This document shows positions 11,048 through 59,901 of a DNA stretch of 64,000 bases, in pieces (within the stretch, counting starts at the first letter, position 1; every line of letters starts with the position of its first letter). The stretch is taken from positions 5,702 to 69,701 of the forward strand of contig JAFGRO010000003.1 of the NCBI GenBank assembly GCA_016935095.1. The letters are read 5' to 3'. The position numbers and the translations under genes were made by a program. This stretch comes from Candidatus Woesearchaeota archaeon (lineage in GTDB: Archaea; Nanobdellota; Nanobdellia; Woesearchaeales; GW2011-AR15). The notes beneath the pieces were generated by a model that saw only the letters and a list, made by a program, of their open reading frames with translations, was not told the origin of the DNA and did no database searches.

Positions 11048-11204
11048 TTTTAATATCCCCCTCATTATTTAGATTATTATGCTTTCCCCTTTTTTATTTT
11101 GAATAACTGTAAGCTACTATTTAAAGCTTTCGTTTAATGAGCATAAAAGAGTAGATACAGCTGATTACCATTTAAAAGTAATGTTCAAAAGTATTTATAT
11201 TTTT

Positions 11205-28590: not shown

Positions 28591-28592
28591 TT

Positions 28593-44050: not shown

Positions 44051-44136
44051 TTTTATACAAATAACTTTTTAAAGTATTATTTTTTATAAAATGAAACCAT
44101 ATATAAAGCTTTGTTTCAAAAAGTGAAATTATAAGA

Positions 44137-44622
44137 ATGAAAGAAAAAAAAGGATTAAAAGAAAGCTTGTTAATCTCAGGAATCATTACCGGTTTTGTAT
44201 TTGTTGTTTCATTAACAATTCTTTATGTAGATAATGCAATTATGAGAGGAAATGCCTGCGGTTGTATAATCCCCATTCCAATAATGATGGTAATACTTTC
44301 TTCTCTTGGAATATTTGTAGGTAGTTTCACTTCATATTATCTGACAGGAAAACATAATAAAGAAAAAAAAGATTTTAAAAAAAATATTGAATCAATACTT
44401 GGATTCCTGGAAAAAGAACCTAAATTAATAATTCAAAAAATAATTGAAAATAAAGGAAAAATAAATCAATCAGATATTGAAAAAAAAACAAATCTGTCTA
44501 GAGTAAAGATTCACAGGATTATAAAAAAACTCAAGTTAAAAAACATAATATTTATAGAAAAAAACGGAAAAAGTAATATTGTTAAACTAAGTGATGAATT
44601 ATATAGTTTATTTATTAACTAA
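44137..44622 (+). CDS. membrane-anchored winged-helix transcription regulator
   Basis: Two N-terminal TM helices; C-terminal wHTH INQSDIEKKTNLSRVKIHRIIKKLKLKNII. Confidence 0.55.
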   Translation: MKEKKGLKESLLISGIITGFVFVVSLTILYVDNAIMRGNACGCIIPIPIMMVILSSLGIFVGSFTSYYLTGKHNKEKKDFKKNIESILGFLEKEPKLIIQKIIENKGKINQSDIEKKTNLSRVKIHRIIKKLKLKNIIFIEKNGKSNIVKLSDELYSLFIN

Positions 44623-46682: not shown

Positions 46683-46896
46683 TAAGTATTTTCATTGCCT
46701 GGCCTCTGCCAAGAGCAATTTTAGAATCAAAAACTTTTAATATTATGGGGCCTCTTTCATCATTTTTTATGATTTCAACATTTGTCCCATCATATATCCC
46801 TAAAGAAGAGAGTCTTCTTTTTAGGCCTTGCCCGCAGTTTATGCAAATTATTTTTACTAGTTTTCTTTCTTTGACTTTTGAAAGCTGTTTTTTCAT
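46666..46896 (-). CDS. feoA: FeoA
   Basis: 76-aa SH3-like protein; LSSLGIYDGTNVEII; overlaps the feoB start. Confidence 0.85.
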   Translation of the reverse strand: MKKQLSKVKERKLVKIICINCGQGLKRRLSSLGIYDGTNVEIIKNDERGPIILKVFDSKIALGRGQAMKILIEEVN

Positions 46897-46902: not shown

Positions 46903-47313
46903 TTATTGTATTATTTTACCATGAGGACATTTTCTTGGATTATTGAGCAAAATATCTATTTTCCTAATTGATTCCTCTGAGAAAGCATGTTCAAGTCGAT
47001 GTGCTTCTTTATTAAGTTTTTTTAAGTCTTTATATTTTAAAATCACCTGTAAAAAAACACTTATAACTCTAAAATTTTTTGTTAGTCTTTTTGCTTTTGT
47101 AAATCCTTTTTTTGTAAAAAAAATATTTGAATATGGAAAGTATTTAATGTATTTTTTTTCCCTTATTTTTTTTAACATCTCAGAAACACTTGCCTTGGAT
47201 ACATTTAATGATTGAGCAATATCAATTGACCTCACTCCTTTAAGTTTATTATCTTTTTCCTCATATAACATATATATAGTTCTTAAATAATCTTCAAAAG
47301 ATTTTTTTCTCAT
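46903..47313 (-). CDS. DtxR/MntR family metal-dependent repressor
   Basis: EDYLRTIYML, wHTH IAQSLNVSKASVSEMLKKI, dimerisation helix RLEHAFS. Confidence 0.85.
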   Translation of the reverse strand: MRKKSFEDYLRTIYMLYEEKDNKLKGVRSIDIAQSLNVSKASVSEMLKKIREKKYIKYFPYSNIFFTKKGFTKAKRLTKNFRVISVFLQVILKYKDLKKLNKEAHRLEHAFSEESIRKIDILLNNPRKCPHGKIIQ

Positions 47314-47316
47314 AAA

Positions 47317-47336
47317 AAGTTAGGTAAACCTAACTT
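47317..47336. promoter_or_regulatory. 9-2-9 palindromic operator (AAGTTAGGT-AA-ACCTAACTT) 4 nt upstream of the dtxR-like start
   Basis: Perfect 9-bp arms; contains TTAGGT/ACCTAA hexamers; TTTAAATA TATA box immediately upstream on the minus strand. Confidence 0.5.
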
Positions 47337-47400: not shown

Positions 47401-47418
47401 CCAAAAATTATATAAATA
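47401..47418 (+). promoter_or_regulatory. BRE/TATA promoter of the DUF134 operon (leaderless)
   Basis: CCAAAAATTATATAAATA, about 25 nt before ATG 47440. Confidence 0.4.
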
Positions 47419-47420: not shown

Positions 47421-47440
47421 TTATGAATACTTATTCATAA
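47421..47440. promoter_or_regulatory. 9-2-9 palindrome (TTATGAATA-CT-TATTCATAA) between TATA and ATG of the DUF134 gene
   Basis: Perfect 9-bp arms ending on the A of the start codon. Confidence 0.4.
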
Positions 47441-47961
47441 TGGTTAGGCCAAAAAGATTCAGGTTCATTGGAAGAAAACCAACCATTGACTATTTTAAAC
47501 CCAGAGGAATACCTCTCTCAGAACTGCAAGAGATTAATCTTACACATGAAGAGTATGAAGCTCTCAGACTAAAAGAAATTGGAAATTATGATCAAAAAAA
47601 AGCCGCAGAACTTATGAACATTTCCCAGCCAACTTATTCAAGAATCTTGGATTCAGCAAGAAAAAAAGTGGCTGATGCAATAATCAACGGAAAAGTACTA
47701 AAAATTGAAGGAGGAGTTTTTAAAATGGTGCAAAGAAAATTTAAATGCTTTCAGTGCCAGCTTGAATGGGAGGTTGCTTTTGGAACAGGCAGACCAAGTA
47801 AATGCCCGAATTGCCAAAGTACAAACATACATAGAGTAAATGTTGAAACAAGTGGCTTTGGACATCATGGCAGAGGCGGAATGGGAAAAGGCAAAGGATC
47901 TTCTCAAACAGGACAAGGTATGGGTCAAGATGGACAAAGAAGAGGACAAAGGTTTAGATAA
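47440..47961 (+). CDS. DUF134 (UPF0251) HTH regulator fused to Zn-ribbon and Gly/Arg-rich tail
   Basis: MVRPKRFRFIG..P..DYFKPRGIP..L..EEYEALRLKE, HTH MNISQPTYSRIL; CFQC..CPNC; GHHGRGGMGKGKG..RRGQRFR. Confidence 0.85.
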   Translation: MVRPKRFRFIGRKPTIDYFKPRGIPLSELQEINLTHEEYEALRLKEIGNYDQKKAAELMNISQPTYSRILDSARKKVADAIINGKVLKIEGGVFKMVQRKFKCFQCQLEWEVAFGTGRPSKCPNCQSTNIHRVNVETSGFGHHGRGGMGKGKGSSQTGQGMGQDGQRRGQRFR

Positions 47962-47963
47962 AA

Positions 47964-48701
47964 ATGCTAATTAAAAATAAAATATTGGTAATGAGCGGGA
48001 AAGGAGGAGTTGGCAAATCAACTGTTGCTGTAAATTTAGCATACAGCTTATCTCTTAAAAATCATAAAGTTGGATTATTGGATATTGATATCCATGGACC
48101 AAATATACCAAAAATGCTTAATTTAGAAAAGGATAAACTTATGAATAAAAATAATAAGATCTTTCCGATATCAGCAAAAAATAATCTTAAAGTAATGTCA
48201 ATGGCCTTCATGCTACAAAATGATTATGATGCTATAATATGGAGAGGTCCTGCAAAACACGGTGTGATAAAACAATTTGTTCATGATGTTGAATGGGGTA
48301 ATTTAGATTATTTGATTGTTGATTTGCCTCCAGGAACAGGGGATGAGCCTTTAAGCATTGCTCAGATCTTAAATCCTGTTACTGGCTCAGTGATTGTTTC
48401 CACTCCGCAACAGGTTGCTCTGCTGGATGCCATGAAAGCTGTGACTTTTTCAAAAAAAATGAATGTACCAGTGATAGGTGTTATTGAAAACATGTCTGGA
48501 AACATATTTGGAAAAGGAGGGGCTGAAAAAGCCGCTAATAAATTAAAAGTGCCTTTTCTTGGAAGAATAAAATTAAATGAGCAGATTGTTAAATCAGGAG
48601 ATTCTGGAAAACCATTTGTTTTAGATAAGGAATTTGAAGAAACAGAATCATTTGAAAAAATTGTAAATAAAATTATAAAATTCGGAGGTACTGAAAAATG
48701 A
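47964..48701 (+). CDS. Mrp/NBP35/ApbC-family P-loop ATPase, entirely Cys-free
   Basis: Deviant Walker A SGKGGVGKST, DLPPGTGDE, GVIENMS; no CxxC, and no Cys anywhere in the 245 aa. Confidence 0.9.
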   Translation: MLIKNKILVMSGKGGVGKSTVAVNLAYSLSLKNHKVGLLDIDIHGPNIPKMLNLEKDKLMNKNNKIFPISAKNNLKVMSMAFMLQNDYDAIIWRGPAKHGVIKQFVHDVEWGNLDYLIVDLPPGTGDEPLSIAQILNPVTGSVIVSTPQQVALLDAMKAVTFSKKMNVPVIGVIENMSGNIFGKGGAEKAANKLKVPFLGRIKLNEQIVKSGDSGKPFVLDKEFEETESFEKIVNKIIKFGGTEK

Positions 48702-48713
48702 AAGATTTTTTGT

Positions 48714-48736
48714 ACCTCCTCAAATTAATCGGAGGT
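48714..48736 (+). promoter_or_regulatory. hairpin pairing an anti-SD (ACCTCC) with the SD (GGAGGT) of the DUF5320 gene
   Basis: ACCTCC-N11-GGAGGT; extends to GTACCTCC/GGAGGTGC with one mismatch; SD lies 9 nt before ATG 48746. Confidence 0.35.
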
Positions 48737-48745
48737 GCATGAAAA

Positions 48746-49093
48746 ATGCCAGGATTTGATAGAACAGGACCTCATGGAGAAGGTCCAATGACAGGAGGAG
48801 GGTTTGGTTATTGTACAGGTAATGTACAACCCGGAACAAGAACATTTAGTAGAGGCGGTGGATTTGGAAGAAGAACCCCTGGAACAGGAGGAAGAGGAAG
48901 AGGCTATAGAAACAGGTTTTTAGCCACAGGCATTCCAAGATGGGGAATCAACCAGCAACCTATCCAGCAACAACAGGTGCAAATTGACAAAAATCAAGAA
49001 ATGCAGGATTTGGAAAACGAAAAAAAAGCACTAGAAAATGAATTAGAAGCAATAAAAAAAAGGCAGGAAGAATTGAAAAACAGGAGTGATTAA
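48746..49093 (+). CDS. DUF5320 family protein (Gly/Arg-rich N-terminus, coiled-coil C-terminus)
   Basis: MPGFDRTGPHGEGPMTGGGFGYCTG signature; RGGGFGRR..GGRGRGYRNR; C-terminal ENEKKALENELEAIKKRQEEL. Confidence 0.75.
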   Translation: MPGFDRTGPHGEGPMTGGGFGYCTGNVQPGTRTFSRGGGFGRRTPGTGGRGRGYRNRFLATGIPRWGINQQPIQQQQVQIDKNQEMQDLENEKKALENELEAIKKRQEELKNRSD

Positions 49094-49094
49094 A

Positions 49095-49244
49095 ATGCCA
49101 GGAAAAGGTCGTCAAGGTGGATTTGCATTAGGACCTGGAGGGGATTGTGTGTGCCCGAAGTGTGGATACAGAACCACTCACCAAAGAGGCACTCCATGTT
49201 ATTCAATAAAATGCCCAAAATGCGGGGAAAACATGACAAGGTAG
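49095..49244 (+). CDS. small Gly-rich double-CxxC zinc-ribbon protein (49 aa)
   Basis: Below the ORF-track cutoff; MPGKGRQGGFALGPGGDCVCPKCG...CPKCGENMTR; starts 1 nt after the previous stop. Confidence 0.6.
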   Translation: MPGKGRQGGFALGPGGDCVCPKCGYRTTHQRGTPCYSIKCPKCGENMTR

Positions 49245-49284
49245 AAATAAAAAGACAGTTTATTAAAATAAAGGAGGTTTAGAA

Positions 49285-49653
49285 ATGAAAATTGTAATTA
49301 GCTCAAATGGAGAATCATTAGAGTCAGATGTAGACATGAGATTCGGCAGATGTAAGTATTTTATTGTAGTTGAAACTGAAAACAAAGAAATAAAAAATTT
49401 TTCAGCCGTTGAAAATCAAGGCGCGTTGCAGGGGCATGGTGCAGGAATAAAAGCGGCTGAACAAATTGGAGAGTTAAAAGCTAATGCAATCATCACAGGA
49501 AATCTTGGACCTAATGCTTCAACAGTTTTAAATCAATTAAATATTGATTGTTATCAGGCAATAGGCACTGTTAAAGATGCTGTAAATAATCTTCTGCAGG
49601 GAAAATTAAAAAAAATTAATTCAATTGTCCAAAAGCATTTTGGCATGAGATAA
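49285..49653 (+). CDS. NifB/NifX-like (dinitrogenase FeMo-cofactor-binding fold) domain protein
   Basis: AGGAGGT SD; FGRCKYFIVVE..GHGAGIKAAEQI..NAIITGNLGPNA. Confidence 0.85.
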   Translation: MKIVISSNGESLESDVDMRFGRCKYFIVVETENKEIKNFSAVENQGALQGHGAGIKAAEQIGELKANAIITGNLGPNASTVLNQLNIDCYQAIGTVKDAVNNLLQGKLKKINSIVQKHFGMR

Positions 49654-49665
49654 TGAGGTGAAAAA

Positions 49666-50043
49666 ATGAAAATTGCAATTTCAACAGATTCAGGAAGAGT
49701 ATCTCAACATTTTGGCAGATGCCCACAATTCACAATAGTTAGCATTGAAAATAATAAACTATTAAAAAAAGAGGTAATTGACAACCCAGGGCATAGTACT
49801 GGATCCCTGCCAAAATATTTTAATGAAATTGGTGTAAATTGTGTAATTGCAGGAGGTGCCGGGAGGAGAGCCCAGAATTTTTTCAAGGAGTATAACATAG
49901 AATTGATTCTTGGAATAAGTGGCAACATTGAAAATGTAATTAATAATTTATTAGAGGGATCACTAAAAGGAGGAGAGAGTTCATGTTCCCCTGGAAAAGG
50001 AAGAGGATATGGTTTTGATAAAGAAGATGGACACCATCATTAA
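49666..50043 (+). CDS. NifB/NifX-like domain protein with Cys/His-rich tail
   Basis: HFGRCPQFTIVSIE..NCVIAGGAGRRA; tail GGESSCSPGKGRGYGFDKEDGHHH. Confidence 0.85.
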   Translation: MKIAISTDSGRVSQHFGRCPQFTIVSIENNKLLKKEVIDNPGHSTGSLPKYFNEIGVNCVIAGGAGRRAQNFFKEYNIELILGISGNIENVINNLLEGSLKGGESSCSPGKGRGYGFDKEDGHHH

Positions 50044-50086
50044 ATTTGTTTTATATTTTAAATAATTGTTTGATTACATCTAACTT

Positions 50087-50689
50087 ATGTTCAAAATGGG
50101 AACCTATCTAAAATCATGCCAATCAGAGTTTTGGAAGAGTGTATTTAAAAAGGAGTTAGAGTATTTAGTTAAAGAATTAAATGCTTGCAAAGAGGTACTT
50201 AGTGTTGAATGTGGTCCAGCAATCATAGAAGGAGAGTTACAGGAATATGGAATTAATGTAACTGGTTTGGATGTATCTAAGGAAGCATTAGAAGGAATTC
50301 CAAACAATATAATAAAAATAGTTGTTACAGCAGAATATATGGATATCTCAGATTTAAGTTATGATGCTGTTATTTATGTCGTATCTTTACAGTTCATTGA
50401 AAATTATAAAAAAGCTGTTAAAGAAACAGCACGTGTTCCTAGATCTAAAGGAAAAATAATTATAATGCTATTGAATCCAAACACAGGTTTTTTTAAAGAA
50501 AGAGCAAAAAAGAATAATTCATATGTTAATAAAATTAAGCACACAAATTTAAGTAAAATAAAAAGAATAATTTCCAAATAATTCTCTGTTCAAACAGAGT
50601 ATTAATTAGGCATTTCAAAACAACAAATATTTGAAAGTCATAATTCCAAGTTAGCTAGTTTATATATAATAAAAGGTGTTAAAAAATAA
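50087..50689 (+). pseudogene. class I SAM-methyltransferase remnant (degenerate motif I, two in-frame TAA stops)
   Basis: VLSVECGPA replaces the VLDVGCGTG-type motif; the frame continues past TAA 50579 and TAA 50603 as FSVQTEY*LGISKQQIFESHNSKLASLYIIKGVKK*. Confidence 0.45.
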
Positions 50690-50725
50690 ATTATAAAGGC
50701 AATTTAAAACAGGGAGGAATTAAAA

Positions 50726-50914
50726 ATGGAAGAAGATTATTGGTTAAGATATGGACTAAAAGAAGACGGCAGATTAATTTGCACAAGGGTTATTTCAAAA
50801 ACAAAACCATCTAAAACATTTTTCTATACAGAAAATGGAACTAACAAAGAAGTCAAAAATGCTGAAATTATAAAATTAAGTTTAGAAAACTTAAATGTGT
50901 TATCAGGGAAATAA
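50726..50914 (+). CDS. hypothetical 62-aa protein
   Basis: GGGAGG SD 8 nt upstream; first gene after a TATA-like TTTATATATAA at 50660-50670. Confidence 0.45.
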   Translation: MEEDYWLRYGLKEDGRLICTRVISKTKPSKTFFYTENGTNKEVKNAEIIKLSLENLNVLSGK

Positions 50915-50916
50915 AC

Positions 50917-51657
50917 ATGTTTAATAACTATGTTTTTTATTCTTCATTATTAGCAAGCATCATAGCTTGTGTTGTTACAACTATTGGAATTTATGTAATC
51001 AATAATTATAAAAAATGGGGGTTAAAAAACATAAATTATTTTATTTGCTTTGCCGCGGGTGTTCTGATATCTGTTTCATTTCTTCATATTATTCCTAAAT
51101 CTTTTGAAATGAGTAAAGATGCTCCTATTTATCTATTAGTGGGATTTTTTTTATTATTTTTGCTGAATAGATTCTTCAAATTATTTTTGTGCAATAAAAG
51201 TGATAGCATAAACTATTGTTTTGGATTGATTCCAATGATAGGAATTGGCTTTCATTCATTTATTGATGGGATAATATATTCTATAACATTCAATGTTCAT
51301 ATATTTACTGGAATAATGGCTGCTATAGGAATGATTTTTCATGAATTTCCTGAAGGCATCGTTACTTATGTTCTTCTTTTAAAATCCGGGTTTAACAGGA
51401 AAAAATCATTAATATATTCTTTTTCTGCAGCAGCTGTAACAACACCACTTGGAATGTTATTATCCTATCCGTTTATATCCAATTTAGATACCGGCCTTCT
51501 TGGAAAGTTTCTCTCACTTTCAGCTGGAGCATTGATATATATTGGCACAACACATTTGTTGCCAGAAGCTGAAAAAGAGAGCAAAAAATATAACCTGCTT
51601 GCACTGGCTGCCGGGATACTTGTTGCAATTGTTATAATTCTATCAAAAAGAGGATAA
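50917..51657 (+). CDS. ZIP family metal transporter (ZupT-like)
   Basis: 8 TM; HSFIDGI and FHEFPEGI signature motifs. Confidence 0.9.
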   Translation: MFNNYVFYSSLLASIIACVVTTIGIYVINNYKKWGLKNINYFICFAAGVLISVSFLHIIPKSFEMSKDAPIYLLVGFFLLFLLNRFFKLFLCNKSDSINYCFGLIPMIGIGFHSFIDGIIYSITFNVHIFTGIMAAIGMIFHEFPEGIVTYVLLLKSGFNRKKSLIYSFSAAAVTTPLGMLLSYPFISNLDTGLLGKFLSLSAGALIYIGTTHLLPEAEKESKKYNLLALAAGILVAIVIILSKRG

Positions 51658-51662
51658 TTAAA

Positions 51663-52517
51663 ATGAAGACCTATCTAGAATGTCTGCCTTGTTTTTTAAA
51701 CCAGGCTATAAATGTAATGAATTTGAATCATCTGGATGATTTTACTAAGCAAAAGGTTATAAAAGAACTAATGATTAAATTGTCAACTGTTGATTTAAAC
51801 AAAAAACCTCCTGAATTTGCAATATTTGTTTATAAAGTCATTTCAGAAATAACAGGAAATAATGATCTTTACAAAGAAATTAAAATAAAAGATAACAACC
51901 ATGCAATTAGTCTGTTGCCAGAGATTAAAAACATTATAAAAAAAACAGATGACAAATTACTTTCAACAATTAAAGTAGCAATTGCAGGTAATATAATGGA
52001 CTTTGTAGCTAATTCAGACTACAACCTAAAAAAAACAGTAGAGGAAGTTATTAAGTCAGATTTTGCAATAAATGATTATAAAAAATTAAAGATAGAAATT
52101 ATTAATGCTAATTCAATAGCATATTTAGCTGATAATTCCGGAGAAATTGTTTTTGATAGACTTCTTGTAAATGAGATTAGAAAACTAAACAAATGTAAAA
52201 TATATTTTTTTGTAAGAGACAGACCAATTGTCAATGACGCAACAAAAAGTGATGCAGAATTTATTGGGATTGATAAAATAGAGAATTTTGAAATAAGAGA
52301 AATTAGAGGTGGATTCCCGAATATATCTTCTATAGAAGATGACCTTGTTAAATTCATTAAAAAAGTTGACTTAGCAATAAGTAAAGGACAAGCTAATTAT
52401 GAATCCTTAAGTGAGATTAAGGCTAATATTTATTTTTTATTAATAACTAAATGCTCTGTAATTGCACGTGATCTTGGTGTTAATAAAGGAGACATTATAA
52501 TCAAAGGTAAAAAATGA
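51663..52517 (+). CDS. DUF89 (ARMT1-like damage-control phosphatase) family protein
   Basis: N-terminal CLPCFLNQ motif; DNSGEIVFD; KGQANYE. Confidence 0.8.
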   Translation: MKTYLECLPCFLNQAINVMNLNHLDDFTKQKVIKELMIKLSTVDLNKKPPEFAIFVYKVISEITGNNDLYKEIKIKDNNHAISLLPEIKNIIKKTDDKLLSTIKVAIAGNIMDFVANSDYNLKKTVEEVIKSDFAINDYKKLKIEIINANSIAYLADNSGEIVFDRLLVNEIRKLNKCKIYFFVRDRPIVNDATKSDAEFIGIDKIENFEIREIRGGFPNISSIEDDLVKFIKKVDLAISKGQANYESLSEIKANIYFLLITKCSVIARDLGVNKGDIIIKGKK

Positions 52518-53470
52518 AGATTTACGGACCAGTACCATCTTGGAGATTAGGAAATTCATTAGGAGCAGACATAGTTGAAGCCCCGAAAAGTTACTGCAAA
52601 ATCTGCTCATTTGACTGCGTGTACTGCCAATTAGGAGATACAGGGCTAAAAACAAACAAACCTGAGCAATATCCTGTCAGTGAAAAAGAGTTACAAATAT
52701 TGAAAAACAGAATTAAAGCAACAAAACCAGATTACATAACCTTTTCAGGACAAGGCGAGCCCACATTTAATCTGAATTTAGGCTATGTTGCAAAAAGAAT
52801 TAAAAAAATGACCAAGATTCCGGTAGCAGTGCTGACAAATGCCTCTTTTATAAAAAATGATTCGGTAAGACAAGGACTGAATCAATGTGATTTTGTTATT
52901 GCTAAGATTGATGCTCCTTCTCAGGAATTATTTGAAGCAATAAACCAACCTTCTCCAGGAATAATGCTCAAGGATATTATTAAAAGCATTACAAAACTTA
53001 AGACAAAAGTTGCGATTCAAACATTATTATTTACCTATAAAAACTTAACAAATGCTGATGATAAAACAATTAAACAATTAATTAAAATTTACAAACAGAT
53101 TAATGATGTAAAACCAACCACTGTATTTCTTGGAACCGCTTACAGACCAACTGACTTAAGAGGAATAATCTCAATAAAGGAACAAAGGCTCAAAGAAATA
53201 GCACATAAAATTAATTATGAAACAGGAATTGAAGTTATTTATTATAAAAAAAGTGAACCATTGTTAATAAGGAGAAAACCCAGGCCAGATGAATTGGAAA
53301 GAGAAATTATTACATTATTAGAAAGAAGACCATGTACTGAAGAGGAAATATCTACAAGGTTTGGTAAAGTTAATATCTCTTTATTGCTTGATGAATTAAT
53401 CAAGGGAAATATAATTGAAAAACGCAGGCAAAATAACAGAATTTATTATTTTGCAAAAAGCAGAGGTTAA
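52514..53470 (+). CDS. radical SAM protein with C-terminal winged-helix domain
   Basis: YGPVPSWRLGNSLG; CSFDCVYC (Cx3Cx2C); GEPT; 4-nt ATGA overlap with DUF89. Confidence 0.85.
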   Translation: MKIYGPVPSWRLGNSLGADIVEAPKSYCKICSFDCVYCQLGDTGLKTNKPEQYPVSEKELQILKNRIKATKPDYITFSGQGEPTFNLNLGYVAKRIKKMTKIPVAVLTNASFIKNDSVRQGLNQCDFVIAKIDAPSQELFEAINQPSPGIMLKDIIKSITKLKTKVAIQTLLFTYKNLTNADDKTIKQLIKIYKQINDVKPTTVFLGTAYRPTDLRGIISIKEQRLKEIAHKINYETGIEVIYYKKSEPLLIRRKPRPDELEREIITLLERRPCTEEEISTRFGKVNISLLLDELIKGNIIEKRRQNNRIYYFAKSRG

Positions 53471-53474
53471 AAAA

Positions 53475-53804
53475 ATGAAAAATGAAAGAGAAGTAAATGA
53501 CAATAATTTTGAAAAAGAAGTAGTTGAAAGGTCCAAAGAAATCCCTGTAGTAGTGGATTTCTGGGCTCCGTGGTGCATGCCATGCAGAATTTTAAGCCCA
53601 AGTTTAGAAAAATTGGCAAAGAAATATGAGAGGAAGTTTATCCTGGCAAAAATTGATGTCAATGAATATAAAGAAAAAGCCCGACAATATAAAATAATGA
53701 GTATTCCCTGTGTAAAGATGTTCAAAAACGGAAAAGTTGCAGATGAGTTCATTGGTTTTATTCCAGAAGATGAAGTCAAAGAATGGCTTGATAAAAATTT
53801 ATAG
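53475..53804 (+). CDS. trxA: thioredoxin (WCMPC active site)
   Basis: AGAGGT SD before ATG 53475; VVVDFWAPWCMPCR..IPCVKMFKNGK. Confidence 0.9.
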   Translation: MKNEREVNDNNFEKEVVERSKEIPVVVDFWAPWCMPCRILSPSLEKLAKKYERKFILAKIDVNEYKEKARQYKIMSIPCVKMFKNGKVADEFIGFIPEDEVKEWLDKNL

Positions 53805-53813
53805 ATATATAAA

Positions 53814-54671
53814 ATGAAAATAATACCTTTGGCATTTGACAGTCTTGGCACAAGATCAATGTGCACTTTTGTAGAAACAAAAGACGCCAAAATAATAATT
53901 GGCCCGAGCGTGGCTCTCGGCCCAAAAAGGTATAATCTGCCTCCTCATAAAAAAGAATTACAGAAATTAGAAAAGCATTGGAAAACAATAGTAAAATATG
54001 CAAAAATATCAGATATTTTAATAATCACTCATTATCATTATGACCACCATAATCCTGAGGAGTGTCTTGAGATGTACAAAAATAAAACAGTTTTGATCAA
54101 ACATCCTACTGAGAAGATAAACCTTAGCCAGAAAAAAAGAGCAAAGTATTTTCTGAACAAAATAAAAGGATTAGCAAAAAAAATAGAATATGCTGACAAA
54201 AACAAATTTAAATTTGGCAAAACAAAGATTGAATTTTCCCCTGCTGTAGAACACGGAACAAATTCAAAACTTGGTTATGTTACAGAAGTTTTAATAGATG
54301 ATGGTTATAAACTCATACACAGCTCAGATGTAGAAGGCCCTGCACTGGACAACCAGACAGATTTTATTTTAAAAAATAAGCCGAATCTATTAATATTAGA
54401 CGGGCCGCTTTCTTATATGCTGGGTTACAGGTATTCTTATGAAAGTCTGAATTCATCTATCAGAAACATGATTAAGATTATTAATAAGTGTCCATTAGAT
54501 TCCATAATAATAGACCACCATTTTCTTAGAGACCTGAAATGGAAAGAGCATCTATCAGAAGTTTTTAATGCTGCAGAGAAAAAAAAGATTAAACTACAAA
54601 CTGCTGCAGAATATGCCAGCAAAAAAATAAATACATTAGAAGCACATAGAAAGGAACTGTATAAAAAATGA
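53814..54671 (+). CDS. archaeal MBL-fold protein (UPF0282-like)
   Basis: IIPLAFDSLGTRSMCTFVETK..VALGPKRYNLPP..ITHYHYDHH. Confidence 0.65.
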   Translation: MKIIPLAFDSLGTRSMCTFVETKDAKIIIGPSVALGPKRYNLPPHKKELQKLEKHWKTIVKYAKISDILIITHYHYDHHNPEECLEMYKNKTVLIKHPTEKINLSQKKRAKYFLNKIKGLAKKIEYADKNKFKFGKTKIEFSPAVEHGTNSKLGYVTEVLIDDGYKLIHSSDVEGPALDNQTDFILKNKPNLLILDGPLSYMLGYRYSYESLNSSIRNMIKIINKCPLDSIIIDHHFLRDLKWKEHLSEVFNAAEKKKIKLQTAAEYASKKINTLEAHRKELYKK

Positions 54672-55510
54672 TAATCGGCGTAACAGGCGGCAAAGGCGGT
54701 ACAGGTAAATCAACAGTTGCAACAGCTCTGGCAGTTGAACTTGCAAAAACTAAAAAAATATTATTAGCGGACATGGATGTAGAATGCCCTAATGACCACC
54801 TGATTTTGAGTATAAAAAAAAAAGAAATTAAAAAAATAGAACAAAGGATTCCTGAATTTGATTTAAGCAAATGCAGCAAATGCGGAATTTGCGGGACTGT
54901 TTGTAAAACAAAAGCTATTGTTTCAATTAAAGATAAAGAACCTATTTTTATTCCGGAACAATGCAATGGGTGTGGAGCTTGTTTTATAACGTGTCCTGTT
55001 AAAGCAATTTCATGGGATAAAAAAGAAATTGGAAAAATTTATTCCGGAAAGAATTACAGAGTTGATTTTATTTCAGGAGAACTGAAAATAAGAGAACCTG
55101 TTTCAGAGTTCATTGTAGATGAAATAAAAGAATTAATTGAAAAAATAAAAAAGAATTATGATTTTATTATTCTGGATACTGCGGCAGGAACACACTGTGA
55201 TGTGATTTCTTCATTAGACTATTGTAATAATGTTCTTGCAATTACAGAACCAAGCCCACTTGGCATGCATGATGTAGAACTAATCATCAAGTTGTGCTTA
55301 AAATTAAAAAAGCCTTTTGAAGTTATATTAAACAGGTATGAAAAAGAAAACGAGCACATAATAACCAAAATGCTTAAAAAATACAATAAGAAAATTTTTG
55401 CAAGAATTCCCTATAAAAAAGAGATAATGGAACAGTATTCAAAAGGTGTACCAATTGAAGATGAATCAATCAAAAAAATTACAGAGATTATAAAAAATGG
55501 ATATAATTAA
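54668..55510 (+). CDS. MinD/CooC-type P-loop ATPase with inserted 2x[4Fe-4S] ferredoxin domain
   Basis: GGKGGTGKST; CSKCGICGTVC and CNGCGACFITCP. Confidence 0.85.
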   Translation: MIIGVTGGKGGTGKSTVATALAVELAKTKKILLADMDVECPNDHLILSIKKKEIKKIEQRIPEFDLSKCSKCGICGTVCKTKAIVSIKDKEPIFIPEQCNGCGACFITCPVKAISWDKKEIGKIYSGKNYRVDFISGELKIREPVSEFIVDEIKELIEKIKKNYDFIILDTAAGTHCDVISSLDYCNNVLAITEPSPLGMHDVELIIKLCLKLKKPFEVILNRYEKENEHIITKMLKKYNKKIFARIPYKKEIMEQYSKGVPIEDESIKKITEIIKNGYN

Positions 55511-55967
55511 ATTAAAACCTATAGGAATAATTCATTCAGAATTTAAACAAAAAGGAAATGTTCCTATCCAGCCAAGTTTTTCCAAATCAGCGGGTAAAGT
55601 TGAGGTTTTCCCTGAATATGAATCTGGATTAAAGGATCTTGACAGGTTTTCTCATATTTATTTAATCTATTATTTTCATAAATCAGAAAACTATGAACTT
55701 TTAGTAAGACCCTATCTTGATGAAATTCAGAGAGGACTTTTTTCTACAAGAGCTCCAAATAGACCAAACAACATAGGAATTTCAGTTGTTGAACTTGAGA
55801 AGATTGAAAAAAATATTTTGCATATCAAAGGGGTTGATATAGTTGACAAAACACCATTATTAGATATAAAACCCTATATAAAAAAATTTGATATAAAAAA
55901 CAATGCAAAAGAAGGATGGATTAATAATAAAATTACAAAGGATCACAAATCTGATGACAGGTTTTAA
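55497..55967 (+). CDS. TsaA/TrmO-like (UPF0066) SAM-dependent methyltransferase fold protein
   Basis: LKPIGIIHSEF, FSHIYLIYYFH, RPNNIGISVVEL, GVDIVDKTPLLDIKPY. Confidence 0.85.
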   Translation: MDIIKLKPIGIIHSEFKQKGNVPIQPSFSKSAGKVEVFPEYESGLKDLDRFSHIYLIYYFHKSENYELLVRPYLDEIQRGLFSTRAPNRPNNIGISVVELEKIEKNILHIKGVDIVDKTPLLDIKPYIKKFDIKNNAKEGWINNKITKDHKSDDRF

Positions 55968-55972
55968 ATAAA

Positions 55973-56752
55973 ATGGTAAAAATCACAATATTGCACAAAG
56001 AACTCCAGAAATTTGACAATGATTTGTCTGGAGTAAGCTTTTTAATTGAAATAAAACCTTTAAGGATTTTATTTGATGTATCCTTTAAAGATGAAATACT
56101 TAAAAATGCAAAACAAGGAAACATTGATTTAAAAAACATTGATTTTTTAGTGATAAGTCATGGGCATATTGACCATACTGAAGGGTTAAAGTATATTGAT
56201 TTTTCTGAAATTAAGAATCTGATTTGCCATCCCTTGTGCTTGGAAAAGAAGTATTATGAAGGCGAAGGAGAGATAGGCAGTCCTCTTTCAGCAGAGGAAT
56301 TAAGAAAAAGAACAAACCTAATTCTATCCAAAGAACCATATTGGATAAATAAAAAAATCGTATTTTTAGGACAAATCCCAAGAAAACTTGAATTTGAAGG
56401 TAAACAAGCAGTTGGATATTTAGAAAATAAAAAAGAGGATTTTGTTATTGATGATTCTGCTGTTGCTATTAAACACAATAAAGGAGTGATAATTATTTCA
56501 GGCTGCTCTCATTCTGGAATCTGCAATATTGTTAATTATGCAAAAAAGGTTTGTAATGAAGAAAAAGTTTATTCTGTTATTGGCGGGTTTCATCTTTTTA
56601 ACAAAGAGCAGACAGACAAAACAATTGACTTTTTTAAAAAACAAAATATTGAAAAATTATTTCCACTGCATTGTTTGGATGAATATGCATTTTCTGAATT
56701 TAGTAAGATTGGCGGAATAAGATTAAAAACTTTGGATACATTTGAATTATAA
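55973..56752 (+). CDS. MBL-fold metallo-hydrolase
   Basis: VISHGHIDHTEG (HxHxDH); GCSHSG; GGFHL. Confidence 0.8.
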   Translation: MVKITILHKELQKFDNDLSGVSFLIEIKPLRILFDVSFKDEILKNAKQGNIDLKNIDFLVISHGHIDHTEGLKYIDFSEIKNLICHPLCLEKKYYEGEGEIGSPLSAEELRKRTNLILSKEPYWINKKIVFLGQIPRKLEFEGKQAVGYLENKKEDFVIDDSAVAIKHNKGVIIISGCSHSGICNIVNYAKKVCNEEKVYSVIGGFHLFNKEQTDKTIDFFKKQNIEKLFPLHCLDEYAFSEFSKIGGIRLKTLDTFEL

Positions 56753-56754
56753 AA

Positions 56755-57405
56755 ATGAAAGTCACGATAACATTCAATAATGAATCCAATCCCGGATTTA
56801 AATCAGGATGGGGTTTTTCATGCCTTGTAAATGAAAGTATGCTTTTTGATACAGGCTGCAGTTTTTCAGATCTGTTTTTTAATATGAAAAAATTAAATAT
56901 AAATTTAAGAAAAATAAAAAAGATTGTTCTTTCACATGAGCATTGGGATCATATCGGAGGTTTGTTTGATCTTCTGAATTATCTTGATAAAGTTAAAGTA
57001 TATGCCTTAAAAAGCTTTTCAAAAGCAAAAAAAAGTGAAATATCAAAACGAGCTGATTTAGTTCTAATTGATAAAAAAAAAGAGATTTCAAAAGACATAT
57101 TTACAACAGGCGAACTTGGAACTGGAATTAAAGAACAATCTTTAATATCAAAAACATCAAAAGGGAATATTGTCATTTGCGGATGTGCGCATCCTGGTGT
57201 AAGAACAATATTAGAAAAAGCAAGGCATTTTGGAGAAATTTATGGGATTATAGGTGGTTTACATGGGTTCTCTGATTATTCTTTAATTAAAAACATTAAA
57301 TTGATTGCAGCCTGTCATTGTACTCAAAACATTAAAGAGCTTCAAGAACGGTTTCCAAAACAATTTTCTGAAGTTAAAACAGGTGATATAATTGAAATTA
57401 ATTAA
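56755..57405 (+). CDS. MBL-fold metallo-hydrolase (paralogue)
   Basis: LSHEHWDHIGG; GCAHPG; GGLHG. Confidence 0.75.
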   Translation: MKVTITFNNESNPGFKSGWGFSCLVNESMLFDTGCSFSDLFFNMKKLNINLRKIKKIVLSHEHWDHIGGLFDLLNYLDKVKVYALKSFSKAKKSEISKRADLVLIDKKKEISKDIFTTGELGTGIKEQSLISKTSKGNIVICGCAHPGVRTILEKARHFGEIYGIIGGLHGFSDYSLIKNIKLIAACHCTQNIKELQERFPKQFSEVKTGDIIEIN

Positions 57406-57922
57406 ATATTATTTCCTGTTAATATTTTTATTATTGGTCATTGGTTGTAATAAAAAGGAAACTTTAATGAAAACTGATCTTTTAGTTAATAATATTGAAA
57501 CTACAACTCCAGAAAAGAGCATATATGTTTGTGAAGATAATACAATAGAACAAGAGCAAAAAGAAAATATTGCTGAAATAGATATTGAAGATAATACAAT
57601 AGAAGAAATGCCTCAAGAGGAAAAAACTCAAAAACTTGTTATGTTCCATAACGGCAAGGGTCCTATGTGCATTGAGCAGCTGGAATTTCTAGAAGATATA
57701 AAAAAAGAATACATAAAGCTGGTTGTAGAAGAATATTTAACAACTGAAGAAGGAACACACAATCTAATATATGAATTCATGAGCAATCATGAAAAAAGCC
57801 TTGGTGTCTCTGATAATTTTGGATATCTTCCTATTACGTTTATAAATAATCATGCTTACTCTGGATTTAATAATGAAGTCAAAAAAATGATCACAAAAGA
57901 TATTAAAGAGGTTTATAGATGA
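57392..57922 (+). CDS. lipoprotein with glutaredoxin-like C-terminal domain (degenerate CxxC)
   Basis: AGGTGAT SD plus 4 nt plus TTG start; lipobox LLVIGC; MFHNGKGPMCIEQLEFL resembles the N-domain of 42668..44050. Confidence 0.5.
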   Translation: MKLIKYYFLLIFLLLVIGCNKKETLMKTDLLVNNIETTTPEKSIYVCEDNTIEQEQKENIAEIDIEDNTIEEMPQEEKTQKLVMFHNGKGPMCIEQLEFLEDIKKEYIKLVVEEYLTTEEGTHNLIYEFMSNHEKSLGVSDNFGYLPITFINNHAYSGFNNEVKKMITKDIKEVYR

Positions 57923-58800
57923 AAAAGATTACAATTCTTTCAGGAAAAGGCGGTGTAGGTAAGAGCAGCATTACTGCTTCTCTTGGTGTTATATTATCAA
58001 AAAATTATAAGATTACCTGTGTTGACTGCGATGTAGATGCATCAAATCTTGCACTTGTGCTTGGCTTAAAAGAAAAGGATTTTGAAAAATGGGAAAAACT
58101 TGCCACAAACCAGAAAGCTGAATTTGATTTAAGCAAATGCATCTCATGCAAAAAATGTTTTGAAAATTGCTATTTTAATGCAATAGAATGGAAAGAAGAT
58201 AAGCCTGTATTAAAAGAATTCGGATGCGAGGGATGCGGTGTATGTGAATTGGTATGCCCTTCCAGGGCAATAAAACTAACTAGTGTTGATAATGCGAAAA
58301 TAGGATATGGAAAAACAAAGTATGGGTTTAATGTTGTTTCAGGGCAACTTGGAATAGGTGAATCAGGCTCAGGCAAAGTTGTCTTTGAAGTAAGAAAGCT
58401 TGCTGCAGAAATCGGAAAAGATTCTGAATTTATATTAAATGATGCTGCCGCAGGCATCGGCTGTCCTGTGATCGCATCTGTTGTTGCAAATGATTATGTA
58501 ATCGCAGTAACAGAACCTACACCCTCTGGTTTTTCAGACCTGAAAAGAGCTCTGCAGATGGTAACTCATTTTAATATCAATTCAGGAATTATTATTAATA
58601 AATTTGATTTAAATCCAGATTACACAAAAAAGATTGAAGATTTTAGCAAAAAAAACAATTTGAAGATTTTAGCAAAAATTCCCTATGATAAATCATTCTT
58701 ATATGCATTGGTAAATATGGTCCCGATAGTGGTTTATAATCCAAAGTTAGAAATATTGTTCAGGAATATTGCTGAGGAAATAAAAAAAGAAATATTTTAA
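57919..58800 (+). CDS. MinD/CooC-type P-loop ATPase with inserted 2x[4Fe-4S] ferredoxin domain (paralogue)
   Basis: SGKGGVGKSS; CISCKKCFENC and CEGCGVCELVCP. Confidence 0.85.
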   Translation: MKKITILSGKGGVGKSSITASLGVILSKNYKITCVDCDVDASNLALVLGLKEKDFEKWEKLATNQKAEFDLSKCISCKKCFENCYFNAIEWKEDKPVLKEFGCEGCGVCELVCPSRAIKLTSVDNAKIGYGKTKYGFNVVSGQLGIGESGSGKVVFEVRKLAAEIGKDSEFILNDAAAGIGCPVIASVVANDYVIAVTEPTPSGFSDLKRALQMVTHFNINSGIIINKFDLNPDYTKKIEDFSKKNNLKILAKIPYDKSFLYALVNMVPIVVYNPKLEILFRNIAEEIKKEIF

Positions 58801-58834
58801 TATATTGATTTATTGTTAGAAACAGGTGATATAA

Positions 58835-59578
58835 ATCGAGTATGCACTTTTATTATCAATACTGAGCACATTTATAGTTAGTTTATTATCTCTTATAGGA
58901 ATTATTTTCATAGCCATAAAAAAGAAAATCATGGATAAAATTATTTTATCATTGGTTGGCTTTTCTGCCGGCGCCCTTATCGGTGGGGCTTTTCTTCATT
59001 TAATCCCTGAAATAATTGAGGAATGCGACTGTACGTATATCTTTCTTTTTGTTATTTCGGGAATCATGGTTTTTTTTATTCTGGAGAGGATTTTGTTCTG
59101 GCATCATTGCCATGAAGGCGTCTGTGATGTCCACACTTTTACTTATATGAATCTAATTGGCGATGGAATACATAATTTCATTGATGGTATTGTTATTGCC
59201 ACTACTTTCAAACTGAATATAAATCTGGGCATGATTACAACATTAATGATAATGGCACATGAGCTTCCACAGGAGATAGGAGATTTTGCTGTCCTGCTTC
59301 ACGGCGGGTTTTCAAAATCAAAAGCACTTTTATTTAATTTTATTTCTGCAGTTACAGCAATTTTCGGGGCTGTGTTCGGTTATTTTTTTTCATCAACAAT
59401 GGAAAATTTCTCAACTTTTCTGCTTCCGTTTGCCGCAGGCGGTTTTATTTACATTGCAATGTCAGACCTTATTCCAGAATTACATAAAGAACAAAAACTG
59501 TCAAAATCCATGATACATTTTATGTTATTTACCATTGGAATCGTCTTCATGCTTGTAATCAGGTTAATCGGAGAATAA
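58835..59578 (+). CDS. ZIP family metal transporter; probable non-canonical ATC start
   Basis: HNFIDGI and AHELPQEIGD motifs; first TM helix (IEYALLLSILSTFIVSLLSLIGIIF) lies upstream of the first ATG (58931); AGGTGAT SD sits 4 nt before ATC 58835. Confidence 0.7.
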   Translation: MEYALLLSILSTFIVSLLSLIGIIFIAIKKKIMDKIILSLVGFSAGALIGGAFLHLIPEIIEECDCTYIFLFVISGIMVFFILERILFWHHCHEGVCDVHTFTYMNLIGDGIHNFIDGIVIATTFKLNINLGMITTLMIMAHELPQEIGDFAVLLHGGFSKSKALLFNFISAVTAIFGAVFGYFFSSTMENFSTFLLPFAAGGFIYIAMSDLIPELHKEQKLSKSMIHFMLFTIGIVFMLVIRLIGE

Positions 59579-59625
59579 AAAAAATTTAAATATGAAAACA
59601 TATTTTCTTTGTGTGGGGTGATTTT

Positions 59626-59901
59626 ATGGAAGAAAAACAAGCTCAGGAAGATTTAGGCGAGGAAATAGGAGAAATAACGCATTTCTTTAATAAGATTAAT
59701 GTCGCTGTAGTTAAGCTTACAAAAGGCAGCCTTTCAGTAGGTGACAAGATAAGGATTAAAGGTGCAACAACTGATTTTGAACAGGGTGTTGATTCAATGC
59801 AGGTTGATCATGCGAACATAGACAAAGCAGATATAGGAAAAGAGTTAGGCATGAAAGTTGCGCAGCCAGTAAGGCAGCATGATATAGTGTATAAGGTTTA
59901 G
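59626..59901 (+). CDS. small EF-Tu domain-2-like beta-barrel protein
   Basis: GGGGTGAT SD before ATG 59626; VAVVKLTKGSLSVGDKIRIKG resembles a translation-factor domain II barrel. Confidence 0.5.
   Translation: MEEKQAQEDLGEEIGEITHFFNKINVAVVKLTKGSLSVGDKIRIKGATTDFEQGVDSMQVDHANIDKADIGKELGMKVAQPVRQHDIVYKV

Follow-up and report, generated by a model that had tools for sequence, protein, structure and literature searches.

A 64,000-nucleotide stretch of DNA from a Candidatus Woesearchaeota archaeon (assembly GCA_016935095.1, contig JAFGRO010000003.1, positions 5702 to 69,701 of the forward strand), referred to below as the window, contains at 47440–59578 a block of 20 successive plus-strand open reading frames (ORFs; g1 to g20), the core of which matches, in its domain composition, the orange-protein (ORP) complex known from Desulfovibrio vulgaris Hildenborough and D. 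alaskensis. The conserved core comprises DUF134, NifX-like proteins (one or two) and a pair of paralogous ferredoxin ATPases of the MinD/NifH class; it is often accompanied by DUF5320, a Cys6-His mini-domain, an Mrp without cysteine and a CcdA-like membrane protein fused to thioredoxin. With confidence that is about evenly balanced, we read the block as an archaeal (DPANN, Woesearchaeota-like) ORP-type system with lineage-specific cargo, serving autoregulated, ATP- and ferredoxin-driven handling of metal-sulfur species. No description of the version of this neighbourhood carried by DPANN archaea and by bacteria of the candidate phyla radiation (CPR) was found in the literature searched, and this version departs from the Desulfovibrio system in its hosts and architecture, in the way it is regulated, in the chemistry of its Mrp and in the modules added to it. 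The core genes and their frequent companions within the block are as follows.

47440–47961, plus strand: g1, DUF134 helix-turn-helix protein (PF02001, 87 bits against a cut-off of 27)
47964–48701, plus strand: g2, Mrp/NBP35-family P-loop ATPase (PF10609, 305 bits)
48746–49093, plus strand: g3, DUF5320 protein (PF17253, 87 bits)
49086–49244, plus strand: g4, Cys6-His mini-protein of 49–52 aa (GPGGxCVCPKCG..H..PC..KCPKCG..MTR; Pfam matches below cut-offs)
49285–49653, plus strand: g5, NifX-like protein (Nitro_FeMo-Co/'Di-Nase') of the MTH1175/ORP type (PF02579, 73 bits)
49666–50043, plus strand: g6, second NifX-like protein (PF02579, 68 bits)
54668–55510, plus strand: g14, MinD-type ATPase A with an inserted 2x[4Fe-4S] ferredoxin domain (CbiA/ParA + Fer4)
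57919–58800, plus strand: g19, MinD-type ATPase B with 2x[4Fe-4S], a paralogue of g14 (36% identity)

A reading of the sequence made without database searches (the original prediction) had named the families of the block, and each of them was confirmed by hidden Markov model searches (Pfam/NCBIfam), two (g4 and g18) on weaker evidence. Scores above the curated cut-offs were obtained for DUF134, Mrp/NUBPL ParA, DUF5320, two Nitro_FeMo-Co, Methyltransf_11, two ZIP, DUF89/ARMT1, Radical_SAM, Thioredoxin, UPF0282, two CbiA/MinD + Fer4, TrmO_N and two Lactamase_B matches. The 'Zn-ribbon' assigned to g4 (52 aa) is borne out by six cysteines and one histidine that are invariant in 10/10 sequences (the window ORF and nine homologues). 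The same Cys6-His module forms the C-terminal domain of DUF134 in most DPANN relatives (locus L051 included) and the C-terminus of a CDF transporter in loci L010, L050 and L069, while g1 itself ends in a CxxC-x15-CxxC zinc ribbon plus a Gly/Arg-rich tail.

Conservation was assessed by scanning one genome per GTDB species through alignment of ATPase A orthologues, which gave more than 514 confirmed matches, the best 80 loci being kept; nearly all of these are DPANN archaea or CPR bacteria, and a few titles of metagenome-assembled genomes name other taxa, unconfirmed. The window proteins were searched against the ORFs of the 80 loci, many of them on truncated contigs, with a chance baseline of ~ 1 locus for a single-copy gene in a 1-Mb genome, which is crude for multi-copy families (thioredoxin, metallo-beta-lactamase (MBL), radical SAM). 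The core recurred in all 80 of these ATPase A-anchored loci: ATPase B was beside ATPase A in 76, a NifX-like gene was near it in 61 (g5-type) and 14 (g6-type, by best match), and DUF134, which heads the cluster in most loci, in 52. DUF5320 was found in 29/80, Mrp in 10/80 and the Cys6-His mini-protein in 10/80. The core genes were also seen together on independent contigs. They mostly run DUF134, NifX-like, ATPase A, ATPase B, and in relatives both ATPase genes are adjacent and directly follow the NifX-like gene, whereas the window has ~ 9 kb of variable cargo inserted. As had been expected, the system is retained in very small genomes, for example on a complete 0.71-Mb Pacearchaeota chromosome (L067).

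A putative control element was located directly at the head of the block.

~ 47408–47417: TATA-like box TTATATAAAT, just upstream of the palindrome
47421–47440, plus strand: 20-bp palindrome TTATGAAT-ACTT-ATTCATAA, ending in the A of the g1 ATG

The palindrome has its sole full match in the window at this position, and no extra copies of it, nor of the iron box described below, rose above shuffled background before g7, g8, g13, g20 or the genes at 42.6–44.6 kb. A layout of B recognition element (BRE)-like cGAAA, TTTAWATA, 3–5 nt, 20-bp palindrome and ATG, located at the first cluster gene of relatives, is shared by 20 aligned loci. Across 1.03 Mb of related loci, 41 operator sites with at most one deviation were counted, 32 of them at the starts of DUF134, DUF5320 or Cys6-His genes, about seven at cluster heads and two inside coding sequence; in two CPR loci (cluster heads) the palindrome overlaps a TTGACA/TATACT promoter. 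Conservation of the operator extends from DPANN archaea to Methanococcoides and to CPR bacteria, and its arms covary symmetrically (GAAT...ATTC, GCAT...ATGC, GGGT...ACTC).

The operator variant moreover follows the recognition helix of the accompanying DUF134 protein, SQPT..R[I/L] going with GAAT (13 + 1), HQST..RT with GCAT (20 + 2) and SQST..RI with GGGT (2), a concordance of 38/38 that ignores shared ancestry; both main helix/operator types occur under several phylum labels, and the helix motif of g1, ISQPTYSRIL, pairs with a GAAT-type operator. This agreement points to autoregulation by DUF134. We infer from these sequence patterns that a DUF134 dimer binds the 20-bp palindrome, and since the palindrome overlaps the expected transcription start, DUF134 probably represses its own operon. 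The association constitutes new evidence of DNA binding by DUF134 (PF02001), a widespread family of unknown function, which gains a testable predicted role and a precise DNA target; the specificity prediction (SQPT/GAAT, HQST/GCAT) is checkable in vitro or in cultured methanogens with the same operator. In Methanococcoides methylutens (CP009518; L087, 9437–10981) the same operator precedes a DUF134-radical SAM (COG0731-type)-CGGC string with no paired ATPases nearby, and this cultured methanogen is a possible experimental handle for DUF134.

Both ATPases carry eight conserved ferredoxin cysteines each. In ATPase A, C40 and C177 are invariant in 80/80 loci, and H44 (CPNDH), H176 (GTHC, directly after the DTAAG motif, which is switch II) and H201 are conserved in 77–79/80; ATPase B has conserved C37, C182 (GIGC, the equivalent of C177 in ATPase A) and H217. 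By analogy with related ATPases, these Cys/His residues would be placed where the dimer closes under nucleotide control. Members of the g14 family vary at their C-termini. An AlphaFold2 model of g14 (pLDDT 79) showed a generic MinD/ParA/ApbC/NifH fold with a low-confidence ferredoxin insert, and a Foldseek search of this model against the Protein Data Bank (PDB) returned generic SIMIBI matches only (MinD, FlhG, ParA, ApbC, HypB, NifH), the best being MinD, FlhG and ParA. No solved structure of the ATPase-ferredoxin architecture was found.

The SIMIBI fold, the deviant Walker A motif and the Cys/His residues by DTAAG are shared by g14/g19 with CooC, HypB and UreG and with MinD and ParA, all of which lack the ferredoxin insert. 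Near the cluster there is no CODH (carbon monoxide dehydrogenase), hydrogenase or urease client, and there are no MinC/MinE or division genes. A CooC/HypB-type Ni insertase was rejected, as the window holds no CODH or hydrogenase client and the motifs CPNDH and GTHC of g14 differ from the metal motif of CooC, which we take to be CXC. The hallmarks of a MinD cell-division system were likewise missing, with no MinC/MinE-type partner or archaeal equivalent among the recurrent neighbours and no conserved C-terminal membrane-targeting helix in the g14 family. Absence of nitrogenase, CODH and hydrogenase genes from the window, noted in the original prediction, was confirmed, and a nitrogenase or CODH maturase was ruled out by the lack of clients and by the wrong motifs. 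Maturation by NifH, NifB, NifX and NafY follows the same carrier-reductase/insertase logic, with a NifX-fold carrier and a dimeric SIMIBI Fe-S ATPase, joined in some loci by a radical SAM enzyme; however, neither the window nor the loci examined contain nifDK or nifEN, and NifH lacks the ferredoxin insert of g14/g19. FeMo-co maturation was accordingly excluded as a candidate, there being no nif structural genes in the window and the g11 radical SAM enzyme being of the COG0731 type, not NifB.

The neighbourhood had been described as having no assigned function; its physiological role is indeed still called unclear, but its domain set is that of the ORP complex, which has been studied since 2011. 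The ORP proteins form a physical complex, Orp3/Orp4 receive Fe-S from MrpORP, and expression is under redox control (PMC6345978, PMC8359166). In D. vulgaris, Orp3 and Orp4 are MinD-like proteins with two ferredoxin motifs each, Orp5 and Orp8 are Di-Nase proteins and Orp9 (MrpORP) is an Mrp-Di-Nase fusion; Orp3, Orp4 and Orp8 are purified together and in vitro accept Fe-S clusters from MrpORP (PMC6345978). Expression needs very low redox potential via the Fe-S regulator OrpR, and the role is 'still unclear', with cell division hypothesised and an archaeal origin suggested (PMC8359166).

Shared between ORP and the window are two paralogous MinD-type ATPases with two [4Fe-4S] motifs each (g14/g19), single-domain Di-Nase (PF02579) proteins including an orange-protein homologue (g5, g6), an Mrp/NBP35 ATPase in the same cluster and a restriction to anaerobes. 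The differences are substantial. MrpORP is a CXXC-containing Mrp fused to a Di-Nase domain, whereas here the two parts are split into g2 and g6, and no window protein reaches the cut-off of 450 of the MrpORP model NF041136. Whereas ORP is organised as two divergent sigma-54 operons under OrpR (an Fe-S PAS protein), the window has one co-directional cluster with BRE/TATA elements and a palindrome that tracks DUF134, and neither OrpR nor any enhancer-binding protein was found in it. DUF5320 and Cys6-His modules are additional here, with ~ 9 kb of cargo between the NifX-like genes and the ATPases, and the version hosted by DPANN archaea and CPR bacteria frequently has a CcdA-thioredoxin partner.

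The chemistry of Mrp differs as well. Although g2 is a full-length member of its family (E = 6e-53 to E. coli ApbC/Mrp, 8ZKC), it has zero cysteines and the CXXC segment is deleted: alignment with 8ZKC and with Cfd1 (6G2G) leaves a 10-residue gap exactly at CxxC. The same deletion was seen in six further cluster-linked Mrp homologues, while two homologues with intact CPxC sit in a different context. In Mrp/NBP35/ApbC carriers the CXXC motif bridges a transferable [4Fe-4S] cluster; because g2 has no cysteine, its role as a canonical Fe-S carrier of this kind was ruled out.

The NifX-like proteins have relatives of solved structure. The best PDB matches of g5 are MTH1175 (1EO1, 1.2e-18) and the D. 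gigas orange protein (2WFB, 3.6e-10), the latter binding a Mo-Cu-S cluster non-covalently (PMC6345978). g6 matches positions 265–365 of the NCBIfam MrpORP model (the C-terminal 'Di-Nase' domain, 95.6 bits) and TM1816 in the PDB (7e-17); it carries HFGRCP and a C-terminal CSPGxGRGYG...GHHH tail, members of the g6-type family ending in CSPGxGKGYG...EDGHE. In Pyrococcus furiosus, the NifX-domain protein IssA stores thioferrate, an anion around which its cationic Gly/aromatic tail is proposed to fold, and MTH1175 belongs to the IssA clade (PMC5524996). IssA has the same globular domain (IPR003731/PF02579) as g5, whose best solved relative lies in its clade, and its Gly/Arg/aromatic-rich disordered single-Cys segments resemble those of DUF5320, g6 and g1. 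The N-terminal motif of g3, MPxxDxTGPxGxGPMTGxGxGYC, is followed by Gly/Arg/aromatic repeats and a coiled coil; in the DUF5320 family it reads MPxGDGTGPxGxGPMTGRGxGYC, followed by Gly/Arg/Phe repeats, with Cys23 invariant in 27/27 aligned sequences. Unlike IssA, which has its tail on the same polypeptide, the system has it mostly as separate DUF5320, with short tails on g6 (20 residues, invariant Cys) and g1 and no IssA-like tail on g5; nothing in the analysis points to nanoparticles here, and IssA has not been described with paired ATPases.

Between and after the core genes the block contains the following cargo.

50087–50581, plus strand: g7, short class-I methyltransferase-like protein, 164 aa (Methyltransf_11, 43 bits)
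50583–50601: hairpin CTCTGTT-CAAACAGAG, also written CTCTGTT-CAAAC-AGAG, directly 3' of the g7 stop and followed by an AT-rich stretch
50726–50914, plus strand: g8, ORF of 62 aa with no family (no Pfam match; Shine-Dalgarno (SD)-like GGGAGG upstream)
50917–51657, plus strand: g9, ZIP metal importer 1 (PF02535, 102 bits)
51663–52517, plus strand: g10, DUF89/ARMT1 damage-control phosphatase-like protein (PF01937, 202 bits)
52514–53470, plus strand: g11, radical SAM enzyme of the COG0731 type (PF04055; CxxxCxxC at 31–38)
53475–53804, plus strand: g12, thioredoxin (WCMPC; PF00085, 96 bits)
53814–54671, plus strand: g13, UPF0282 archaeal MBL-fold protein (NF003287, 321 bits against a cut-off of 286)
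55497–55967, plus strand: g15, TrmO/TsaA-family (YaeB-like) protein (TIGR00104, 151 bits against a cut-off of 93)
55973–56752, plus strand: g16, COG1237-type MBL-fold protein (PF00753; PDB TM1679 at 1e-22)
56755–57405, plus strand: g17, second COG1237-type MBL-fold protein (PF00753; PDB 7DCK at 2e-30)
57392–57922, plus strand: g18, lipoprotein-like protein with a thioredoxin fold and a single Cys (GPMC), with a signal/lipobox-like N-terminus
58826–59578, plus strand: g20, ZIP metal importer 2 (PF02535, 143 bits; annotated ATG at 58931)
59611–59901, plus strand: a 21st small ORF, following g20 on the same strand

A divergent pair of genes further upstream also belongs with the system, being usually located directly downstream of ATPase B in relatives.

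42668–44050, minus strand: 460-aa protein with a secreted thioredoxin-like domain (CPHC) fused to a CcdA/DsbD-like domain with multiple transmembrane (TM) segments
44137–44622, plus strand: DUF7343 winged-helix protein with two N-terminal TM helices and a CxC motif

The 460-aa protein has a signal peptide and conserved NPC and GC motifs in its polytopic domain; with homologues in 26/80 loci it is the commonest partner after the core genes, DUF7343 being found in 14/80. The block coordinates 47440–59578 were consequently too narrow as the full extent of the system, which reaches upstream to the operator at 47421 and, functionally, to 42668–44622.

Among the cargo families, MBL-fold proteins recurred in 14 (g17-type) and five (g16-type) of the 80 loci, thioredoxin in 13, ZIP in 12 (g20-type) and five (g9-type), TrmO-like in 11 and radical SAM in nine, mostly directly upstream of ATPase A. 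The short methyltransferase (g7) was present in 4/80 loci, DUF89, g8 and g18 in 2/80 each and UPF0282 in 1/80; g7, g8, g10 (DUF89), g13 (UPF0282) and g18 are best seen as passengers. The proposal of one conserved 12-kb supercluster thus gave way to a conserved core with a recurrent metal/thiol shell and a few passengers. Accessory genes recur in differing orders in L002, L008, L031, L057 and L088. The nearest relative, L002 (75% identity), has the same frame, including dtxR-feoAB, with partly different cargo (EncFtn, CMD, cupin, DUF123), and L088 adds NifU_N, DsrE, CoA-binding and PNPOx genes, with rubrerythrins, superoxide reductase, ferredoxin:thioredoxin reductase (FTR) and Msr in its flanks. 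Overall, the neighbour context in the 80 loci is overwhelmingly metal, thiol and Fe-S related. CDF efflux transporters occur in 14 loci, often between both ATPase genes, most with a C-terminal NifX domain (PF02579) and three (L010, L050, L069) with a g4-like module instead; the CDF-NifX fusion is seen, for example, at 10791–12029 of L011 and also in L025, L026, L038, L052, L058, L080, L082 and L086. De novo clustering of neighbours gave as further partners CoA-binding proteins, ArsP-like permeases, pyridine-nucleotide disulfide oxidoreductase, the FTR catalytic subunit, VIT1, NifU_N, a CobW/HypB-like GTPase and Fer4-NifX fusions.

The original prediction of a self-contained metal- or Fe-S-cofactor assembly, trafficking or repair system is supported in its general sense by recurrence of the core and by the metal, thiol and Fe-S context, but not as a 12-kb unit or with Mrp as a canonical carrier. 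Beyond the observed homology, conservation, linkage pattern and covarying operator, we infer a ligand, a site for the heterodimer interface, a direction of transfer and a mode of repression. The NifX-like proteins would hold labile inorganic metal-sulfur species, most likely Fe-S fragments, and the Gly/Arg/aromatic-rich single-Cys segments (DUF5320 and the tails of g6 and g1) may help bind them, as the IssA tail does. The two ATPases are envisaged as a heterodimer whose nucleotide-gated closure would position C40, H44, H176 and C177 of ATPase A and C182 of ATPase B, while the built-in ferredoxin domains would feed in low-potential electrons, so that the species could be loaded, reduced or released to clients or membrane transporters. 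Metal would be supplied by the ZIP and Feo transporters, and on either side of the membrane the thioredoxin and CcdA-type proteins may maintain the thiols involved in reduced form. Transcription is expected to start at the TATA box upstream of g1 under control of a DUF134 dimer on the palindrome, the Cys-rich module (part of a fusion in most relatives, a separate g4 in the window) presumably sensing metal or cluster status.

Several points weigh against this interpretation as an ORP-type metal-sulfur system. More than one metal would suit: the orange protein binds Mo-Cu-S, and Zn or other chalcophile metals would be compatible with CDF and ZIP as partners. g14/g19 were set beside Orp3/Orp4 (DVU2103/2104) on the published description of their architecture, and Orp7, the putative counterpart of g1, is presumably a DUF134 protein. 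Because g2 is without cysteines, Fe-S transfer via CXXC in the manner of MrpORP cannot run likewise here. Placement of the conserved Cys/His residues at the dimer interface relies on a likeness to NifH Cys132 and to the CooC and HypB metal sites that we assume, and the g14 model and fold search gave no split between a NifH-like and a MinD-like role. A helix-operator concordance that takes no account of shared ancestry and the crude baseline for multi-copy families count on the same side.

Three other explanations were weighed. In metal-sulfide detoxification or efflux, the NifX-like proteins would sequester thiometallate or metal-sulfide clusters (Zn, Cu, Mo/W, Fe) in sulfidic habitats and the ATPases would hand these to CDF, ArsP or VIT-type exporters, for protection and not for cofactor building. 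The CDF transporters with NifX or g4-like modules in 14 loci, often between the ATPase genes, fit such a scheme, as do the recurrent ArsP-like and VIT1 exporters, the fusion of the g4-type Cys6-His module to CDF in three loci and the non-covalent Mo-Cu-S cluster of the D. gigas orange protein. The window, however, encodes importers (two ZIP, FeoAB) but no exporter; NifU_N, DsrE and Fe-S transfer of the MrpORP type speak for the supply of cofactors, and the IssA precedent is one of storage and donation, not export. We regard detoxification as unlikely. Somewhat less probable still is a mosaic in which only six or seven core genes form a system and the rest of the 12 kb reflects gene packing in a streamlined genome, an account that holds for some cargo genes and is contradicted by recurrence for others. 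DUF89, UPF0282, g7, g8 and g18 do recur in at most 4/80 loci, relatives keep their ATPase genes adjacent without the window cargo, the block is interrupted at 50.6 kb and, nominally, at 58.8 kb with AT-rich promoter-like stretches before g7, g13 and g20, and the window has a single operator copy. Yet MBL, ZIP, thioredoxin, TrmO-like and radical SAM genes lie near the core in 9–19/80 loci against ~ 1 expected for a single-copy gene, the accessory genes recur in different orders in five of the relatives named above (L002, L008, L031, L057, L088), and overlapping stop/start codons tie several of them to the ATPase genes in the window.

Redox-gated division or positioning, the Desulfovibrio hypothesis, takes the MinD-like ATPases as spatial regulators with Fe-S clusters as mere redox sensors. 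Cells that lose OrpR, and hence the Orp proteins, show defects in morphology, MrpORP is found at the pole, MinD-like amphipathic helices are reported at the C-termini of Orp3/Orp4, and the best structural matches of g14 are MinD, FlhG and ParA. These fold matches are generic for the SIMIBI class (ApbC, HypB and NifH being matched too), however, no known division gene occurs among the recurrent neighbour families of the 80 loci, the C-termini of the g14 family are not conserved, and the ORP authors themselves call the role unclear; we consider this explanation quite improbable. Retention of a compact ORP system in many DPANN and CPR genomes, including one of 0.71 Mb, argues for a basic, portable anaerobic metal-sulfur function and not a Desulfovibrio-specific division role.

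For 15 years no physiological role has been assigned to the ORP complex, work on which has been confined almost entirely to Desulfovibrio. With an ORP-type metal-sulfur system as the favoured interpretation, the range of what the complex handles, and of where it does so, is narrowed by the lack of cysteine in Mrp, by the CDF-NifX fusions and by the partnership with CcdA-thioredoxin, and the operator/specificity prediction together with the breadth in minimal genomes makes this long-standing question more testable. A bolder extension, to which we give only a slim chance, is that the DUF134-controlled core is a self-standing route, driven by ATP and ferredoxin, by which ultra-small anaerobes (DPANN, CPR) build or mobilise metal-sulfur cofactors directly from inorganic metal and sulfide; if true, it would be a further route of Fe-S or complex-cluster biogenesis beside ISC, SUF and NIF. 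Most archaeal [FeFe] hydrogenases lack HydEFG, and an 'alternative pathway' of maturation has been invoked (PMC11216029). The core could be that alternative, but a search for H-cluster motifs in all 80 loci returned one [FeFe]-hydrogenase-like ORF and no enrichment, giving no neighbourhood support. This sole ORF with three H-cluster motifs within 10 kb of the core is located at 10326–12005 (minus strand) of L064.

The layout of the block agreed with the original prediction in most respects. Its 20 consecutive plus-strand ORFs were confirmed by ORF table and translations, and the 4-nt ATGA overlaps at 52514, 54668 and 57919 and the 14-nt overlaps at 55497 and 57392 were all exact. Gaps of 1–6 nt, expected elsewhere, were only partly borne out, the gaps at g2/g3, g4/g5 and g6/g7 measuring 40–44 nt and those at g5/g6 and g12/g13 9–12 nt. 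The break at 50.6–50.7 kb is present as 144 nt (50582–50725), with the hairpin at 50583–50601 as a possible internal terminator, but is not the only one, a second, nominal break of 130 nt being found at 58801–58930. Within the latter, 58826–58930 encodes, in frame with g20 and without ATG, GTG or TTG, a helix resembling TM1 of the first ZIP, which suggests a non-canonical start codon or damage at the 5' end of g20; because TM1 is encoded in frame upstream of the ATG, the true gap is probably ~ 25 nt. For g12, the start is most likely the ATG at 53475 (4-nt gap), the mechanically called TTG at 53415 giving an overlap of 56 nt with g11. SD-like GGAGG/GAGG precedes most internal genes and is absent before g1, g7, g13 and g20, the last three having promoter-like AT-rich stretches instead. 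As strand changes at about half of the junctions elsewhere in the window, we estimate roughly that the chance of 20 same-strand junctions in a row is near 1e-5 to 1e-6.

Individual cargo proteins have further characteristics. The glycine-rich loop of g7 is degenerate. g11 ends in a winged-helix-like C-terminus, its top NCBIfam match is a tungsten-cofactor radical SAM maturase (weak, far under the cut-off), and a PDB sequence search found no relative of it. Conserved residues of g17 comprise HxHxxH, C144-x-H146, H170 and H188-C189. The description of g18 as a glutaredoxin-like lipoprotein held on weaker evidence: without a Pfam match, it aligned by BLASTP (E = 6e-5) to the thioredoxin-like domain of the 42668–44050 protein, with GPMC standing where CPHC is.

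Divergent from g1 lie the iron genes that had been noted as neighbours of the block.

44646–46682, minus strand: feoB
46666–46896, minus strand: feoA
46903–47313, minus strand: dtxR-like repressor gene
47318–47335: near-perfect palindrome AGTTAGGTAAACCTAACT, a DtxR/IdeR-type iron box, 5 nt upstream of the dtxR start

Their adjacency was upheld in the window (Pfam) but not as a recurrent feature, DtxR being found in 4/80 and Feo in 3/80 loci. The iron box, which we take to resemble the IdeR consensus, is present in a single copy in the window, against 0.05 matches expected by chance, and a similar box occupies the equivalent place in L002 (4494–4511).

The best ATPase A homologues are annotated as Woesearchaeota, Nanoarchaeota, other DPANN and some CPR bacteria, and the remainder of the window (G+C ~ 30%) encodes archaeal housekeeping and surface functions (PCNA, AglB/STT3, GyrA, RNase J, glycosyltransferases, surface proteins). 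A NAC gene was additionally found on a Logan contig bearing the same sequence. Rfam and tRNA scans of the 64 kb gave no match. Hemerythrin and OsmC genes (37715–38251 and 42194–42595) lie just upstream of the metal/thiol region, and an OsmC gene also adjoins the core cluster in L008, L068 and L088. Amid the glycosyltransferase and surface-protein genes, three large minus-strand ORFs of 1195, 465 and 497 aa (19505–23092 and 27193–30086) had no Pfam match at E ≤ 1e-5. Downstream of the block, 61937–63664 (minus strand) encodes a secreted, very acidic protein of 575 aa that belongs to no Pfam family and has 41 cysteines, arranged in repeated CEDECT.D.C.GYNYI.C-like modules.

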